Of a stretch of 64,000 bases of DNA, positions 9,165-21,238 are shown in pieces. The stretch lies in the sequence record PV390658.1; one strand, 5' to 3'. The stretch's first letter is position 1; each line of letters begins with the position of its first letter. The notes under the pieces were generated by a model. It was not told where the DNA came from and searched no databases. It worked only from the letters and a program-made list of their open reading frames with translations. A program made the translations under genes and the position numbers. Origin of the DNA: Escherichia phage vB_EcoM_P54.

Positions 9165-9213
9165 TTTTAAATCTCCAGTTTAGGAAGTAGGCTTGTTTGC
9201 CTGTCTGATGCAA

Positions 9214-9242
9214 ATACTAAATAACCATAGTCAGAGAGTCAA
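9214..9242 (-). promoter_or_regulatory. candidate sigma70-like promoter for the leftward early array
   Basis: Minus strand TTGACT (9237-9242), 17-nt spacer, TAGTAT (9214-9219). Confidence 0.4.
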
Positions 9243-9404
9243 TAGGAATTTTAAAAATATTTTTGCAAAAAACTGTAATGAAACGGGCGCACGCGACTAC
9301 CACAAAACAGAACTACAATCAAGAATTATTTTTCAATCCGCTACAAATTTTTCTGTTGACTTTTCTTTTCAGATGTGGTAGCCTTGTGAGAAATGGCGAC
9401 ATCC

Positions 9405-9600
9405 CCACCTGCACCCACCTACCTGCACAATTCTAAAATGATTTTTCTTGCCCGACCTGAGCGGGGTCTGCACGTTTTGAAAATGAAAAAGCTCTTTGGA
9501 GATTACCTGCACAGTTTGAAAATGAATTTTCTCTTTGGAGTTCAAAATTTTCTCTACAGATTTCTGTCCAGAACTCTACCTGCACAATCCTGAAATGAAA
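9405..9600. repeat. four degenerate direct repeats, core ACCTGCACA-N-TTYTRAAATGA
   Basis: Copies at about 9418-9440, 9466-9490, 9502-9527 and 9575-9600; CTCTTTGGAG also repeated at 9491 and 9531. Confidence 0.6.
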
Positions 9601-9671
9601 AAGCCCTCCTTACCTGAAAAATTTACCAGATAAGAAAGGCTTAGCCTATTGTGAATATTCTACAGAGTTTC

Positions 9672-10457
9672 TTAGTTCTTTGCGTCTAAGAAGGTTACTT
9701 CCGGTGAAGAGAAAATCTCCTCAACATCCTCATCAGTTCTTGCATAGATATATGTATCTGCATCGCTGCCAAATGTTACTGCAATTCTGTGATTGCTCTT
9801 CGACAGGTGGGTAACTAGAGCGTTACTTAGAGACATCTTTTCAACCGGAGGGTTACTTTGATGTATCTTGCCTTTTCTTCGTCTGAAGAGGGTAACTACA
9901 TCATTAGTGAACACTACTACACCAGCAAAGTATTCTGGTTCACAGTAGTTCTTCCAACCTGAGCGTAACTTGTGGTACATCTCTCCTTCATAGACATACA
10001 GATACACATCTACACTCTTCATCACCTGATTAATGATGACTGTGACGGCTTGAGAGTCTAGTCCACCGATACCTGCACCAATCATAGGTAACCCAACTTT
10101 CTTCAACTGATTGACTTCACAGTATCTGTTAAGCTGTTTCAAAGATGACTCTAAAGCACTGTATCGGGCATCTTTACCAGTCTTAAGCTGAGTGTAAAGG
10201 TTAGCTATACGGCCTTGTTCTAAACGTGCTACAGAGAAATTGCCTAGTAAATTTTCACAGGGTTTGTGACCTATACCACCTGCATACAGATAGACTTCTG
10301 TATCAGTCTCATATGCTTTTGGGTAAAGTTTAGAAATCTTGTCAGCGATACCTGCACCCATTAAATTCATACAGTTGCAACCGTGACCAATAATATCAAA
10401 CTTACCTTTATCAAATGCGGAGAAGATATCCCCATTGATGATTTTTACAATACCCAT
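9672..10457 (-). CDS. macrodomain-like protein (261 aa), putative ADP-ribose binding or hydrolase
   Basis: N-terminal VKIINGDIF...FDIIGHGCNCMNLMGAGIADKI and GLPMIGAGIGGLD resemble macrodomain motifs GDIT...DAIVNAAN...GGGV and ISTGIYG; extra C-terminal region of about 110 aa. Confidence 0.5.
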   Translation of the reverse strand: MGIVKIINGDIFSAFDKGKFDIIGHGCNCMNLMGAGIADKISKLYPKAYETDTEVYLYAGGIGHKPCENLLGNFSVARLEQGRIANLYTQLKTGKDARYSALESSLKQLNRYCEVNQLKKVGLPMIGAGIGGLDSQAVTVIINQVMKSVDVYLYVYEGEMYHKLRSGWKNYCEPEYFAGVVVFTNDVVTLFRRRKGKIHQSNPPVEKMSLSNALVTHLSKSNHRIAVTFGSDADTYIYARTDEDVEEIFSSPEVTFLDAKN

Positions 10458-11479: not shown

Positions 11480-11749
11480 TCACTTCCTCGTTTTAAGAAC
11501 TGCTAAGATTTCTTTAGAGTCTGGTAAGAACCATGTGTAGTGATTCTCTTTGATTTCTGGATGAGTGTCAACCTTTATTTTGCACTCTTTACCAACATGC
11601 TTAAGCTGTGCTGTGACACCTTGCATAAAGATATGACACATCACGTTATCCATAATGGTTGGTGAGAAATCAACCCGCATATAAGTTTCTTTTGGTCGTG
11701 GTAGCAGTAAGTACCCTTCTACATAGAAAGTATCTTCATTCTCTGTCAT
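11480..11749 (-). CDS. hypothetical protein (89 aa)
   Basis: ATG at 11749 overlaps the upstream stop by ATGA. Confidence 0.5.
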   Translation of the reverse strand: MTENEDTFYVEGYLLLPRPKETYMRVDFSPTIMDNVMCHIFMQGVTAQLKHVGKECKIKVDTHPEIKENHYTWFLPDSKEILAVLKTRK

Positions 11750-12015
11750 TGCTGTTTGTTTCCTAATAAAATCATATCAATAAGGTTATTAGCTTTGATT
11801 GTGCACTGGTAAAAACCATCACGATAAAACTCAAGGGCTGCTGCCACATCACTACCAGTATTACCTTTGACAGTGAATCTTGACTCTTCTTGAGTGTACT
11901 TGTCACTCTCACTTACTTGGGAGTTTTTGAATGTACTGTTCACTTTGTTCGTTGAACACCCTGACATAATTATCAGTAACACAAACATTATAAAACTCTG
12001 GCTTAGTCTTTTCAT
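11746..12015 (-). CDS. putative o-spanin (outer-membrane lipoprotein, 89 aa)
   Basis: N-terminal signal peptide ending in a Cys lipobox-like site (LIIMSGC); lies in a different frame overlapping the 3-prime end of the i-spanin-like ORF. Confidence 0.5.
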   Translation of the reverse strand: MKRLSQSFIMFVLLIIMSGCSTNKVNSTFKNSQVSESDKYTQEESRFTVKGNTGSDVAAALEFYRDGFYQCTIKANNLIDMILLGNKQQ

Positions 12016-12256
12016 ATGTTAGTACCTCTTTTGTGTGCTTATTCTTAGCAAGCACGTCTTTCAAATCATTTTTGTAATTGGTGCTGAGTGTGGCTAAACC
12101 TTCCTGATAAGCATCTTTAGCAACACTTATTAGTTTCTCATTATTTAGCTCAGCTTCAGCAACTTGGTAGTCTCTGTAAGAGTATCCTCCCCAGACACCT
12201 GCTCCAACTAAGAAAACAATTATGAAAGTAGCTTGGCAGAACTCTTTAAATGTCAT
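11909..12256 (-). CDS. putative i-spanin (115 aa)
   Basis: Single N-terminal transmembrane segment then charged helical region; AGGAG SD before ATG at 12256. Confidence 0.5.
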   Translation of the reverse strand: MTFKEFCQATFIIVFLVGAGVWGGYSYRDYQVAEAELNNEKLISVAKDAYQEGLATLSTNYKNDLKDVLAKNKHTKEVLTYEKTKPEFYNVCVTDNYVRVFNEQSEQYIQKLPSK

Positions 12257-12275: not shown

Positions 12276-12296
12276 AAAAAGGCTCCCGAAGGAGCC
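12276..12296 (-). terminator. rho-independent terminator (minus strand)
   Basis: A-run then GGCTCC-CGAA-GGAGCC hairpin. Confidence 0.6.
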
Positions 12297-12308
12297 TGTA
12301 TCTTAACC

Positions 12309-12784: not shown

Positions 12785-13480
12785 TCAATGTTTAACTAAC
12801 ATGGTTTTAATGTGTGGAAGGATTCTGTTTACCTTCTGAACATTCTTCTCTGTATCTTCTATAAAACATACTATATTAAAGTAAGGTAGAATGCAAGACT
12901 GAATCATCCTCACTTTCAAACTTTCTGCACTTATAGAGTTAGTTCCAAAACCACGCATAAAAAGCATGTAATCATGCTCTATGTAATGCCTTAAAAACAT
13001 CTCAGTAGGTACTCTCTGAGATTCACCCCTCGCTGTCAAGAGTCCAATGGCAGCATGATTAGAGATTGCATCAATAATATTGAAAACATATGTTGGTTTT
13101 GCACTTACAGAGTCAAGCAAATTAGTGTACTGTGAAAATGACCCATCAATCAGTTCCGTTGAGCAATCTTCGTGATTAAAATTTGTAAGAACACCATCAA
13201 TATCTGCTAAGATGAGGTTACCTTTTTCTACAAGGTCTTTATTGACTATGACTAAACTGTCACGTCTTACACCTATAGATTGCCCAGTCTCTTTATCCAC
13301 AACGTTCACAATTGGTTGTAATGTGTGGAACTCTTCAAGTGAACATACAACCTCTCTTGCAATGTCTTCAAAATCCCTGCACTGTTCTGGAGTCCATACA
13401 CAGTAATCGAGACCTAACTCATGAGGATGCAAGTCATAAGCATGGCACAATACTTCATCAGACTTTCTTAATTTTTTCAT
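12785..13480 (-). CDS. HAD-superfamily hydrolase-like protein (231 aa)
   Basis: Motif LILADIDGVLTNF matches the HAD motif I (hhhhDxDGhL). Confidence 0.5.
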   Translation of the reverse strand: MKKLRKSDEVLCHAYDLHPHELGLDYCVWTPEQCRDFEDIAREVVCSLEEFHTLQPIVNVVDKETGQSIGVRRDSLVIVNKDLVEKGNLILADIDGVLTNFNHEDCSTELIDGSFSQYTNLLDSVSAKPTYVFNIIDAISNHAAIGLLTARGESQRVPTEMFLRHYIEHDYMLFMRGFGTNSISAESLKVRMIQSCILPYFNIVCFIEDTEKNVQKVNRILPHIKTMLVKH

Positions 13481-14065: not shown

Positions 14066-14095
14066 ATAAAAAAGGCCGCCGAAGCAGCCTTTTAA
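14066..14095 (-). terminator. hairpin terminator after rIIB
   Basis: AAAAGGC-loop-GCCTTTT inverted repeat with flanking A and T runs. Confidence 0.5.
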
Positions 14096-18201: not shown

Positions 18202-18222
18202 AAAAAGGCTCCCGTAGGAGCC
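18202..18222 (-). terminator. rho-independent terminator after the NAMPT-like gene
   Basis: A-run then GGCTCC-CGTA-GGAGCC hairpin. Confidence 0.6.
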
Positions 18223-18237
18223 TCTTATCATATACTT

Positions 18238-20019
18238 TTAAAGCTGCTTGTCAATATTATTTCGAATATCACCAAGAGTTGTGTAACCGAACTGCTCAGA
18301 GTCACTAAAGACTAAACGTAAAGCACAAGCTGGATGTTCAAGCACATCTGCAAAGCTCTGGAATCCATAGCCATCTACAGCTTTCAGCTTATCGCCATCC
18401 CACATAGGTGCTACACCACCAAAAGCAGACTTCTTAACACCGCTATCTGTTTTAGGGTCTTTTGCAAGCATAATCTCTTTACCACCAATGCTTGCAAGAG
18501 TTGCTTTGACAGCAAATGCAAAGGTGTCACGAGTCATGTACTGGTAAGTGTAAGAACCTACACCAAACACTACGTTAGAGCTTGCAAAACCCATTTCATA
18601 CAAACGCTTCAGGATTTCGTTTGCACGTTCCAACGTGATAGAGTCACCATAGATAAGGCCAATGTGCTCATCCAGTACCTTAAAGCCTTTAGAGTTGATA
18701 GTCCCTCCAAAGATGTTATACAGGGTCTTAATAGCCCCATCAATCTCTGCTACAGGACGTGTTACAACGTTTGCAGAGCCGTTGATGTAGGCATCTTTCA
18801 GAAGCACTGTATCAGCTACTTCAAAGTCTTCTCTGTCAACCACCATTTCATAGCCTTCTGTACGTAACCACCCAGCCATAATATAGTGAATGTCTTCAAG
18901 ATTCATGTTCAGAACAGCATTCAACATTGTGTCGCTGGCTTCCAGCTTGCTTAGGTGTTCGTAATAAGCCTTTTTAGCACACTCTAAGTGGATTGCTTTA
19001 TAGCCTGTGACAATATGTACAGGGTCTCCAGAGTCAGGACGAATTACCAGTTTACCATCACGTTCCATAATCTCTTTACGGAGTTCTGGTAATATAACTG
19101 ATACAGTTCTCCAGAAGTTATAAGTATCTGAAACAACACTTGCAATACCAGTTGGGTAAGTTTCTGTTAAGAAACGACGGAAGGTTTGTAACTCACCTTT
19201 AAAACGTCTTTCATCTTCAATTAACTCATTACCACCTTCCCAAGCAATGTTTGCACACATTACAGAGTGTTCAGTGGCTGGCACAGAACTACCAATATCA
19301 GAGATTGGGTAGGACTGTCCATAGATGCGTTTAGCTGTATACACAGCAGGGAAGCTGTCAGTTCCTTTAAAGCTGGTTAAGTGACCTACAGCGTTAAATG
19401 CGTCATCAGTAAAGCCAGACATACCACGCATAGCAAAGTCATGGCACTGATAAGGTAAATGCAAGTCGTTGTCACAAGTAAGGTCAGCCCACTTCTTACA
19501 GATACGTTTGTAGTGCAATGCAATAGTTGCAATGGTACAAGCCTTCCAAATCTCAGCAGAGAAAGCATCTTCCAGATACCCCGCTACCCAATGGAAACCT
19601 GAAACAGTGTTCTGGAAGACAATCATTGGCACACGCATAGGGACAACTGTACCTTCTTCTACAGCGTAGACTTCAACTGGTAGATAACCTAAGTCGTGGA
19701 GTGCTTCCCAATGTTCTCGACCAATAGCATCTTTACCCAGAACGCCGTTCATGACTTCTAAGATTTCATCAATTGCTTCTTTTTTGTCACGTTCGAAGAA
19801 GGTGGCGTTCCAGTGGTCTATCAGGTAATCTTTAACAAAACGTTGAATACCAAAAGCAACTACACCGTCAATTGCTAAAGGGCTGTTAAACCATTTATCA
19901 CTACGTGGTGTCAGGTTGAACATTAGGTACTCTGTTGCACTAGGATACTGATAAATATGGCCAGATTTGTAAGCATCCGCGTTTAAACCTGCTGGTACTG
20001 CATAAAGTGATTTAGTCAT
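18238..20019 (-). CDS. nicotinamide phosphoribosyltransferase family protein (about 593 aa)
   Basis: N-terminal NADAYKSGHIYQYP resembles the NAMPT DSYK-x-THY motif; ORF-track start 20070 is TTG, start moved to ATG at 20019. Confidence 0.7.
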   Translation of the reverse strand: MTKSLYAVPAGLNADAYKSGHIYQYPSATEYLMFNLTPRSDKWFNSPLAIDGVVAFGIQRFVKDYLIDHWNATFFERDKKEAIDEILEVMNGVLGKDAIGREHWEALHDLGYLPVEVYAVEEGTVVPMRVPMIVFQNTVSGFHWVAGYLEDAFSAEIWKACTIATIALHYKRICKKWADLTCDNDLHLPYQCHDFAMRGMSGFTDDAFNAVGHLTSFKGTDSFPAVYTAKRIYGQSYPISDIGSSVPATEHSVMCANIAWEGGNELIEDERRFKGELQTFRRFLTETYPTGIASVVSDTYNFWRTVSVILPELRKEIMERDGKLVIRPDSGDPVHIVTGYKAIHLECAKKAYYEHLSKLEASDTMLNAVLNMNLEDIHYIMAGWLRTEGYEMVVDREDFEVADTVLLKDAYINGSANVVTRPVAEIDGAIKTLYNIFGGTINSKGFKVLDEHIGLIYGDSITLERANEILKRLYEMGFASSNVVFGVGSYTYQYMTRDTFAFAVKATLASIGGKEIMLAKDPKTDSGVKKSAFGGVAPMWDGDKLKAVDGYGFQSFADVLEHPACALRLVFSDSEQFGYTTLGDIRNNIDKQL

Positions 20020-20040
20020 CTTTTTAATCTCTCTCAAAAT

Positions 20041-20056
20041 GGGGCTTTGAAGCCCC
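20041..20056 (-). promoter_or_regulatory. intergenic hairpin between the Prs-like and NAMPT-like genes
   Basis: GGGGCTTTGAAGCCCC palindrome preceded by TTTATA and followed by ATTTTGAGAGAG SD region. Confidence 0.45.
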
Positions 20057-20066
20057 CTATAAAGTT

Positions 20067-20948
20067 TCAATCAATGGTAATTACAGTAACTTGGGCATAA
20101 TGTGTTAAGCCACGGTCTTTAGCTTCCCCTAAAGAGTTTGTAGTGTAGATATGGTCAATACCATTGTCAAGTAAGTTTTCAACACCTTTAGAGAAAATGC
20201 CATGAGTTACATAGAGTTCCACACGTTTTGCACCTGCTTCACGAAGATGTTTAGCTGCTTCTATGAAGGTTCGACCTCCATCACAGATGTCGTCCAGAAT
20301 CATGACAGTTTTATCTGTCAAATCAACATCATCGAGGATTCGCATACCGGTAATCTCACCAGTCTTAAGGTTACGCACTTTAGACATTGTGATGTATGGT
20401 TTATCCACCTCTTTAGCGGTCTCTGCAATCTTCTTAGCAGCACCTGCATCTGGGGCTACTAAGTAATCAACCAGTGGGTCATTCGCATAGTGGACTGCAA
20501 TCTCCTTTTGGGGGATACTCTGGAAGCAGTTAAACAGGTTATCTGGTACATAACTGTGAGAGTCAACTGCACAGACTGCATCGAAACCCATTGCATTAAC
20601 CTGTTGTGCAAACACTTTCAAAGCTGCTGCATCACCTTTAAACATGTGACGGTCGTAACGTGCATTTGGCAAATAGTAAAAGATGACAGTCTTCATAGCA
20701 AACTTATGGGGCACTAAGTTGTCAACCGCCTCTTTAGCAAGTGCCACAGCAAACAATGTATCTTTATCATAACCTTTTACAATCATAATCACATTGTTGA
20801 TAGATGATGCTGCATAAGCAGTGAAGTCAACAAACTCTGGTGAAAAGTGTCCACCAATCTCACCAGAAGGGAATTGGATGATGTTAAACTCTTCTTCATG
20901 AGTCCCTTTAGTTGGTGAATGAACTGTAACACGGATAGATGTTTTCAT
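20067..20948 (-). CDS. ribose-phosphate pyrophosphokinase (Prs) family protein (about 293 aa)
   Basis: Type I PRTase PRPP-binding loop VMILDDICDGGRT; start moved from TTG at 20963 to ATG at 20948. Confidence 0.7.
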   Translation of the reverse strand: MKTSIRVTVHSPTKGTHEEEFNIIQFPSGEIGGHFSPEFVDFTAYAASSINNVIMIVKGYDKDTLFAVALAKEAVDNLVPHKFAMKTVIFYYLPNARYDRHMFKGDAAALKVFAQQVNAMGFDAVCAVDSHSYVPDNLFNCFQSIPQKEIAVHYANDPLVDYLVAPDAGAAKKIAETAKEVDKPYITMSKVRNLKTGEITGMRILDDVDLTDKTVMILDDICDGGRTFIEAAKHLREAGAKRVELYVTHGIFSKGVENLLDNGIDHIYTTNSLGEAKDRGLTHYAQVTVITID

Positions 20949-20959
20949 AGTTTTCTCTC

Positions 20960-21238
20960 TCAATCAAAAGTTACGTTTGTTACTGCCATTGCAGATTTGC
21001 ATTTTGCAGGGTCTACAACGTGATAAAGTACACTACAGTTACCTGTGCTGTCTGGTACAGGTTTAACCCATTGTTGCTTGACAGTTGGTTCTCCTAAATC
21101 TTTGTAAGAACCATCTGTAAAATTGTTTACCATCTCAAGTGCAATTGGTTCTGGAACATGACCTCGTATCATGTACATTTCACAACCATTACCACCCTCA
21201 CTGACTAGTGGTAAAATCTCCCACTTCTCTTTAGCCAT
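20960..21238 (-). CDS. hypothetical protein (about 92 aa)
   Basis: ORF-track 20960..21265 starts with TTG; ATG at 21238; no clear SD, start uncertain. Confidence 0.35.
   Translation of the reverse strand: MAKEKWEILPLVSEGGNGCEMYMIRGHVPEPIALEMVNNFTDGSYKDLGEPTVKQQWVKPVPDSTGNCSVLYHVVDPAKCKSAMAVTNVTFD

Follow-up and report, generated by a model that had tools for sequence, protein, structure and literature searches.

A two-domain macrodomain protein of Felix O1-like phages and its possible part in counter-defence

What does a macrodomain protein that carries an orphan second domain do in a Felix O1-like phage? The question is raised by a gene in a 64,000-nucleotide stretch of DNA from Escherichia phage vB_EcoM_P54 (sequence record PV390658.1); this whole stretch is called the window here. 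The window belongs to Felixounavirus, Ounavirinae, whose genomes are about 87 kb in size, and the DNA of the region is 93-97% identical to that of over 100 Felix O1-like myoviruses whose hosts are Escherichia, Salmonella and Shigella. An earlier note, made by a model from the letters of the sequence, had pointed to an open reading frame (ORF) at 9672-10457 without naming its strand. The frame is real, with an ATG start, 261 codons and a terminal stop in the translation, and it lies on the minus strand. The gene and its two parts are as follows.

9672..10457, minus strand: whole gene of the macrodomain-C-terminal domain (macro-CTD) protein, 261 aa, coordinates including the stop codon; PHROG 335 'phosphatase'
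9987..10457, minus strand: N-terminal macrodomain, residues 1-157, recognised by Pfam score, invariant columns, fold match, clade placement and the ratio of non-synonymous to synonymous substitution (dN/dS)
9675..9986, minus strand: C-terminal orphan domain, residues 158-261 (104 aa), predicted to consist of a linker helix, about six beta-strands and a terminal helix

The answer favoured here, at a rough probability of 45%, is that the product is a two-domain counter-defence enzyme that would act as the phage protein Adpp does, turning ADP-ribose (ADPR)-1''-phosphate into ADPR and feeding NARP1, a pathway that rebuilds NAD+ and whose two genes lie in the same window. The gene as such is not new, because its orthologues are already annotated as macro or phosphatase proteins and belong to PHROG 335: GenBank records of Felix O1-like phages label them 'putative phosphatase', 'macro domain protein' or 'O-acetyl-ADP-ribose deacetylase', PHROG 335 ('phosphatase') matches the protein over its full length (E 3e-112), and the 'putative phosphatase' of phage vB_EcoM_CRP22 is 99.6% identical to it. 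Also known already, from very recent work, are the family and both of its counter-defence roles. Not yet described are the two-domain architecture with its orphan C-terminal domain, the possibility that Ounavirinae carry a NARP1-associated phosphatase far from NARP1, where the published census did not reach, and the lysine-less active site common to T4 AdfM, Adpp and the window protein.

Is the N-terminal part a macrodomain at all? The Pfam Macro profile (PF01661) scores 31.3 bits (E 2e-7) where the gathering cutoff is 22 bits, and aligns residues 25-141 with positions 2-117 of its 118. A profile of 15 family members finds human TARG1/OARD1 (E 2e-11), the DarG macrodomains of M. tuberculosis (2e-8) and T. 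aquaticus (4e-7) and yeast Poa1p (2e-5). In the AlphaFold2 model, which has a mean predicted local distance difference test score (pLDDT) of 81.5, residues 1-157 take up the three-layer alpha/beta/alpha macro fold, and a Foldseek comparison of the model with the PDB returns TARG1 (E 2.4e-9, target template modelling (TM) score 0.79), DarG (1.4e-8), Poa1p (1.9e-7, target TM 0.71) and viral Mac1 (about 3e-7), alphavirus and coronavirus macrodomains also being among the matches. The key residues are D10, H25, N28, G34-A35-G36, N86-L87-Y88-T89-Q90 and G127-A128-G129-I130-x-G132, and the motifs among them that would bind ADP-ribose (D10, G34-A-G36 and G127-A-G-I-x-G132) show little or no variation in the family. 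Within Felixounavirus this part of the gene is under purifying selection (dN/dS 0.02-0.09). Judged by profile and predicted model, residues 1-157 are a bona fide macrodomain, well beyond chance. The strings that the earlier note had quoted in proposing a macrodomain with ADP-ribose-binding motifs, GDIF, FDIIGHGCNCMNLMGAGIADKI and GLPMIGAGIGGLD, are all present in the translation, and Pfam score, profile search and predicted fold agree with that proposal; a fold of another kind, which it had named as the refuting outcome, was not seen with AlphaFold2 and Foldseek.

To which kind of macrodomain does it belong? The string GHGCNC, first taken to be unusual, is by the alignments nothing of the sort: it is the clade signature of Poa1p-like macrodomains. 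This signature, H-x-x-N-C, reads HGCNC in the macro-CTD protein and in T4 Tk.4, HSCNC in yeast Poa1p and HQCNC or HQANC in Adpp. N28 lines up both with the Asn of the catalytic site in the NAAN motif and with N22 of T. aquaticus DarG, and the alignment shows that the adenine-contacting Asp (D10), the H25/N28 pair and both glycine-rich phosphate/ribose loops are retained. The window protein has HGCNC, NLYTQ and GAGIGGLD, all invariant across its family. In the broader form H-x-x-N-C, N-[LV]-Y-[GT]-Q and G-x-G-[IL]-x-G-x-D these motifs are common to all clade members, including Tk.4 of T4 and RB6, Adpp of Vibrio phage Gary and PAK_P1-type proteins. A neighbour-joining tree made from the alignment places the window protein inside the phage Poa1p-like clade with T4 Tk.4 and Adpp, and the nearest CHARACTERISED relatives of the macro part are T4 Tk.4 (AdfM) and Adpp. 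Identity over the macrodomain is 34% with T4 Tk.4, 34-37% with RB6 Tk.4, 30-35% with the NARP1-associated macrodomains of Pseudomonas and Acinetobacter, 27-28% with Gary Adpp and 22-27% with DarG, PhiKZ gp104 and TARG1. Poa1p itself, an ADP-ribose 1''-phosphate phosphatase (PDB 6LFQ), resembles the window protein in its HSCNC against HGCNC and in its G-I-F-G against G-I-G-G loop. It differs in its overall identity of about 24%, in a long insertion before the second loop and in a Ser, rather than Gln, after the beta-strand Thr; it works in a cellular pathway for a tRNA-splicing by-product and is not viral.

Membership of the DarG/TARG1 type was considered and rejected, because the catalytic Lys of that type is replaced by Gln and the scores of the DarG hidden Markov models (HMMs) are far too low. 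This Lys stands in an 'FPTK' motif (K80 in T. aquaticus DarG, K84 in TARG1, K78 in PhiKZ AdfM), and profile and MAFFT alignments put the invariant Q90, within NLYTQ, at its position; the catalytic Asp is likewise missing, TARG1 D125 aligning with G131, a position that is Gly or Ala in the family. The NCBIfam antitoxin_DarG equivalog gives 48.4 bits, over the macro part only, against a cutoff of 250, and the PADLOC DarG model gives 47.6 bits for the window protein, 36 for T4 Tk.4, 45 for Gary Adpp and 132.9 for PhiKZ gp104. T4 AdfM, Adpp and the window protein are, by alignment, of one shared lysine-less active-site design, yet different substrates are credited to them, and no residue that separates an 'AdfM-type' from an 'Adpp-type' was found among the clade members compared. 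Any cleavage of thymidine-ADPr by the lysine-less T4 enzyme would have to proceed without the DarG lysine. The name AdfM is also used, in two recent papers, for two macrodomains that are not orthologous: PhiKZ gp104 (L004:22518-23006), which is of the DarG type with the FPTK Lys, and T4 Tk.4 (L003:4923-5390), which is of the Poa1p/Adpp type, with NLYTQ and without the Lys. PhiKZ gp104, the chimallivirus AdfM, is a biochemically proven DarG-type enzyme (PMC13309987).

What could such an enzyme be for? Adpp converts ADPR-1''-phosphate to ADPR and so lets NARP1 rebuild NAD+; in Vibrio phage Gary (KNV71_gp137) this role has biochemical and genetic proof (Osterman et al. 2026, 10.64898/2026.01.28.702374). 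The RES-domain defence aRES has ADPR-1''-phosphate as its product; NARP1 alone can make no use of this compound and fails against aRES (10.64898/2026.01.28.702374). The earlier note had seen a Prs/NAMPT pair 8 kb away from the macrodomain gene, and the pair is there:

20067..20963, minus strand: Adps (ADPR pyrophosphokinase, Prs-like), the first NARP1 enzyme, recognised by Pfam Pribosyltran and Pribosyl_synth and by identities
18238..20070, minus strand: Namat (nicotinamide ADPR-transferase, NAMPT-like), the second NARP1 enzyme, recognised by Pfam NAPRTase and NAMPT_N and by identities

The window Adps is 39% identical to the tested Adps of Gary (E 2e-38) and 80% identical to that of Bas63, and the window Namat is 40-45% identical to Gary Namat (E 2e-67); by these comparisons the Prs-like/NAMPT-like pair is NARP1 (Adps/Namat). 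The two genes adjoin on the same strand as the macro-CTD gene, 7.8 kb upstream of its start, and the macro-CTD gene is about 17 genes downstream of Namat. NARP1 was itself discovered in a Felixounavirus, Bas63, where deletion of genes 79-80 sensitised the phage to SIR2-HerA; ADPR-PP was detected in Bas63-infected cells and decays during infection to ADPR-cyclic-phosphate (10.1101/2024.02.11.579819). The same work (Osterman 2024) lists Felix O1, wV8 and Bas63 as NARP1 carriers and Felixounavirus Namat sequences as 'Adps-associated' (10.1101/2024.02.11.579819).

In the Adpp-like reading, the macrodomain would bind the ADP-ribose moiety of its substrate, hydrolyse the substituent on ribose 1'' and free ADP-ribose. 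The substrate would be ADPR-1''-phosphate made by aRES or another RES-type NAD+ phosphorolysis, and the freed ADPR would pass to Adps and Namat, which would rebuild NAD+ from it, an arrangement that may be called 'NARP1-AP in trans'. A second source may be the hydrolysis of ADPR-cyclic-phosphate, the decay product of the NARP1 intermediate ADPR-PP; this route would require a cyclic phosphodiesterase as well. Three considerations lead to this reading: aRES, which defeats NARP1 alone, is found in enterobacteria that this phage group infects (E. coli, Klebsiella and Enterobacter); the product of the macro enzyme would be the substrate of NARP1; and infection with Bas63 yields ADPR-cyclic-phosphate, a possible further source of 1''-phosphorylated ADPR. 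The nearest non-phage homologue with H-x-x-N-C, yeast Poa1p, is an ADPR-1''-phosphate phosphatase, and both domains are under purifying selection, two findings that also speak for it. The suggestion that the protein feeds the Prs/NAMPT pathway, made in the earlier note, is by analogy essentially the published NARP1-AP logic, and its other suggestion, removal of ADP-ribosyl marks in the face of a DarT-type defence, has a parallel in the need of T4 for Tk.4 against DarTG2.

How close is the resemblance to Adpp? Both proteins belong to the phage Poa1p-like clade and share its motifs, with 27-35% identity between the window protein and Adpp-type proteins, and in both cases the phage encodes Adps and Namat. 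Adpp, however, is a single domain of about 158 aa encoded inside the NARP1 operon or within two genes of it, whereas the window gene is 7.8 kb off in another transcription unit and encodes 104 aa more, its activity being predicted from sequence. The published census of Adpp took in genes in the Adps-Namat operon or within two genes of it, a span outside which the macro-CTD gene lies. No Felixounavirus is listed in its Table S1 (10.64898/2026.01.28.702374), because only two genes either way of NARP1 were covered.

Several points weigh against an Adpp-like role. The macro-CTD gene is outside the NARP1 operon, separated from Namat by three minus-strand terminator-like hairpins at about 18215, 14080 and 12290 (18203-18226, 14070-14093 and 12280-12297), and shares its unit with spanin genes. 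By identity the nearest characterised homologue is T4 Tk.4, an anti-DarTG2 protein, and not Adpp. Some clade members have no NARP1 nearby, as in the T4-like phages and in an unrelated Phapecoctavirus, and inside Ounavirinae the co-occurrence of the macro gene with NARP1 is confounded by common descent. The essentiality of the motif His is weakened by an Erwinia orthologue that has Gln in its place. Finally, Bas63 was not among the phages tested against aRES (10.64898/2026.01.28.702374). A literature search found no published tests of a Felixounavirus against DarTG or aRES.

The distribution of the gene bears on some of these points. Homologues of the macro part are found by tblastn in about 2,800 phage records, the match in T4-like phages being gene tk.4, beside vs; macro-CTD records number about 262 and Adps-positive records 1414. 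The order NARP1 - rIIA/B - polynucleotide kinase (Pnk) - spanins - macro-CTD is kept in Felixounavirus, Mooglevirus, Kolesnikvirus and distant metagenomic relatives, and co-occurrence of the macro gene with NARP1 was rejected as independent evidence, since it reflects conserved synteny within Ounavirinae-like contigs. The Erwinia orthologue is that of the Kolesnikvirus vEam_PM_27 (L008:12998-13780), which reads IGQGCNC. Its C-terminal domain is too diverged for BLAST alignment, yet the length of the protein (260 aa) and its place directly after the spanin genes are both conserved.

Might the protein instead act on DNA? An anti-DarTG2 factor of the T4 kind, which would strip the ADP-ribose put by DarT2 on thymidines of phage single-stranded DNA and so restore replication, is a close rival, because T4 Tk.4 is, by a narrow margin, the nearest of the characterised homologues; it is regarded as possible, with some doubt. 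Tk.4 was named AdfM (anti-DarT factor Macrodomain) when its deletion was found by HIDEN-SEQ to sensitise T4 to DarTG2 (10.1101/2025.11.20.689424). Its likeness to the window protein extends over residues 3-160 (34%; 37% for RB6 Tk.4), with identical HGCNC, NLYTQ and GxGIxG motifs and with Gln in both at the position of the DarG catalytic Lys; it differs in being 155 aa long, in lacking a C-terminal domain and in having no NARP1 near its gene. TARG1 and DarG are the best matches among solved structures, the PADLOC and NCBIfam DarG models do match the macro part, and DarTG2 is present in E. coli. DarG, too, is a two-domain protein whose second domain binds the toxin, and on this model the C-terminal domain of the window protein would help to engage DNA or DarT2. 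DarG2, PhiKZ gp104 and TARG1 have in common with the window protein the macro fold (Foldseek E 2e-9 to 1e-7, the top structural matches) and the catalytic-site Asn. The invariant Gln in place of the catalytic Lys and the Gly or Ala in place of TARG1 D125 nevertheless argue against such an activity, as do HMM scores of 48 bits, where the NCBIfam cutoff is 250 and PADLOC gives 133 for PhiKZ AdfM. Identity with these proteins is only 22-27%. The C-terminal domain is unlike the DarT-binding domain of DarG and is not consistently basic. The evidence for Tk.4 is moreover genetic, its activity on DNA having been deduced from it (10.1101/2025.11.20.689424). The Adpp-like and AdfM-like readings are not mutually exclusive, because the sequences give no way of telling the active sites apart. 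As a second activity, the same site may hydrolyse the ADP-ribosyl-thymidine that DarT2 makes on DNA.

What, then, is the C-terminal domain? The earlier note had described an extension of about 110 residues with no function that it recognised; the measured length is 104 aa, and no sequence or fold relatives were detected. Modelled alone with AlphaFold2, the domain reaches a pLDDT of 79.5 and a predicted TM score of 0.71. A profile search of 1.84 billion representative proteins finds it in no protein without this macrodomain, apart from two truncated gene calls. One of these, P0030 (114 aa), was rejected as a stand-alone protein because its start is the last macro strand, 'VDVYLYVY', and P0040 is likewise a fragment. 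A fold search of BFVD returned the SUSP2 orthologue alone, and there was no match in PADLOC or the PDB. No similarity was found to the C-terminal DarT-binding domain of DarG, the DarG HMM matches ending at about profile position 146-153 of 329-338, and a PH-like domain received neither a Pfam PH score above threshold nor a significant structural match. The profile of the domain weakly matches PQQ/BamB blades through a 'P..(F)DGVV...' beta-hairpin, at E values of 1e-10 to 1e-3 that arise only when repeats are summed, and BamB in the PDB is matched at E 0.018. Kinship with these beta-propellers was rejected, the similarity being one of blade motif summed over three to seven repeats and not homology.

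Every Ounavirinae genus examined has the domain (Felixounavirus, Suspvirus, Mooglevirus and Kolesnikvirus), and so do more remote metagenomic relatives in which the gene order is the same. It is a real domain, because it too is under purifying selection within Felixounavirus (dN/dS 0.16-0.29), and in the family its identity is 14-54% against 40-80% for the macrodomain. In net charge the orthologous domains vary from -5 to +4 and thus show no consistent basic character, which disfavours a nucleic-acid-binding domain. As its presence is conserved and its sequence changes fast, a module that binds a partner or target would be expected, perhaps one shaped by an arms race. Could Ounavirinae (Felix O1, Bas63 and relatives) then carry an extended NARP1 working in trans, in which the macro-CTD protein is a feeder that handles both ADPR-1''-phosphate from aRES and the ADPR-cyclic-phosphate or ADPR-1''-phosphate that leaks from the unstable intermediate ADPR-PP, and the C-terminal domain is a new binding module that docks a partner, either a host effector (aRES or DarT2) or Adps/Namat? 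This fuller scheme is less likely than not.

A role outside immunity is improbable. The protein would here be an eraser or cleaner of ADP-ribose: an O-acetyl-ADPR deacetylase, a hydrolase of mono-ADP-ribosyl groups on protein or RNA, or an enzyme linked with Pnk that clears Appr-1''p in RNA repair. Macrodomains of this fold are promiscuous, GenBank labels such as 'O-acetyl-ADP-ribose deacetylase' or 'phosphatase' point this way, the Pnk gene lies 2.3 kb upstream in conserved synteny, and RNA ligase genes flank the NARP1-AP operon of Gary. Both experimentally studied members of the phage clade, however, serve counter-defence, the neighbourhood of the macro-CTD gene yielded no RNA 2'-phosphotransferase or ADP-ribosyltransferase, and Pnk is in a separate terminator-bounded unit. 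A non-catalytic sponge, with a macrodomain that would hold ADPR-based immune signals (His-ADPR, gcADPR) out of action and a C-terminal domain that would mediate oligomerisation, is very improbable: phages do use sponges against Thoeris, type II Thoeris ThsA uses macrodomains as signal receptors and the DarG/TARG1 catalytic Lys is missing, but the family shows no variation in the catalytic-type Asn/His motif or in either loop, identical motifs occur in the enzymatically active Gary Adpp, and a macrodomain dN/dS of 0.02-0.09 fits an enzyme active site.

It is only recently that macrodomain enzymes have come to be seen as a means of phage counter-defence, with AdfM directed against DarTG2 and Adpp against aRES, and Felix O1-like phages, the group in which NARP1 was discovered, serve in diagnostics and therapy. 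If an Adpp-type enzyme is indeed encoded off the operon, the reach of NARP1-AP, and with it the resistance to be expected against RES-type NAD+ depletion, would be underestimated; were the extended NARP1 in trans true, roughly another fifth of NARP1-carrying records would be aRES-resistant, beyond the 15% counted. The orphan domain is for its part a candidate new targeting module.

How is the gene expressed? The TAA stop of an upstream 78-aa ORF directly abuts the ATG of the macro-CTD gene, which GGGAGAG precedes, and translation of the two is therefore probably coupled. One further feature stands downstream:

9601..9642, minus strand: terminator-like hairpin with a 17-bp stem and a T-run, found by a consensus scan as a pattern match only

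It starts 30 nt after the stop codon and is predicted to end the macro-CTD transcription unit. GC-rich hairpins with T-runs split the minus-strand block into four units (Adps-Namat, rIIA-rIIB, Pnk and spanins-through-macro), and the macro-CTD gene is the last of a unit of ~2.6 kb headed by two spanin genes. Co-transcription with NARP1 was rejected, since predicted terminator-like hairpins intervene. Just upstream of the hairpin that follows Namat, and partly overlapping the end of Namat, is a strong sigma-70-like promoter (TTGACA-16-TATGAT, 18254-18227). The overlapping spanin genes (11746-12256, minus strand) encode an i-spanin of 115 aa and an o-spanin of 89 aa with a lipobox-like LLIIMSGCS. 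Lysis genes and a putative counter-defence gene in one terminator-bounded unit are an odd pairing, one that bears on the 'early-middle' label first given to the region.

The Pnk gene (PHROG 3970; 12785-13480, minus strand) keeps its synteny with the macro gene across the Ounavirinae-like contigs, and in phage Gary (L005) RNA-ligase genes and a phosphoesterase gene border the NARP1-AP operon; these neighbourhoods hint at a possible link with RNA repair or cyclic phosphates. Just downstream of the macro-CTD gene is a gene-free gap of ~500 bp (9165-9671), in which no structured RNA was matched in Rfam. Between 9394 and 9613 there are three to five copies of a 22-34-nt direct repeat, TACCTGCACA(A/G)TT..AAAATGA, with three matches against 0.05 expected by chance and nowhere else in the 64-kb window. 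The next minus-strand unit may have its promoter or a regulatory array in this repeat.

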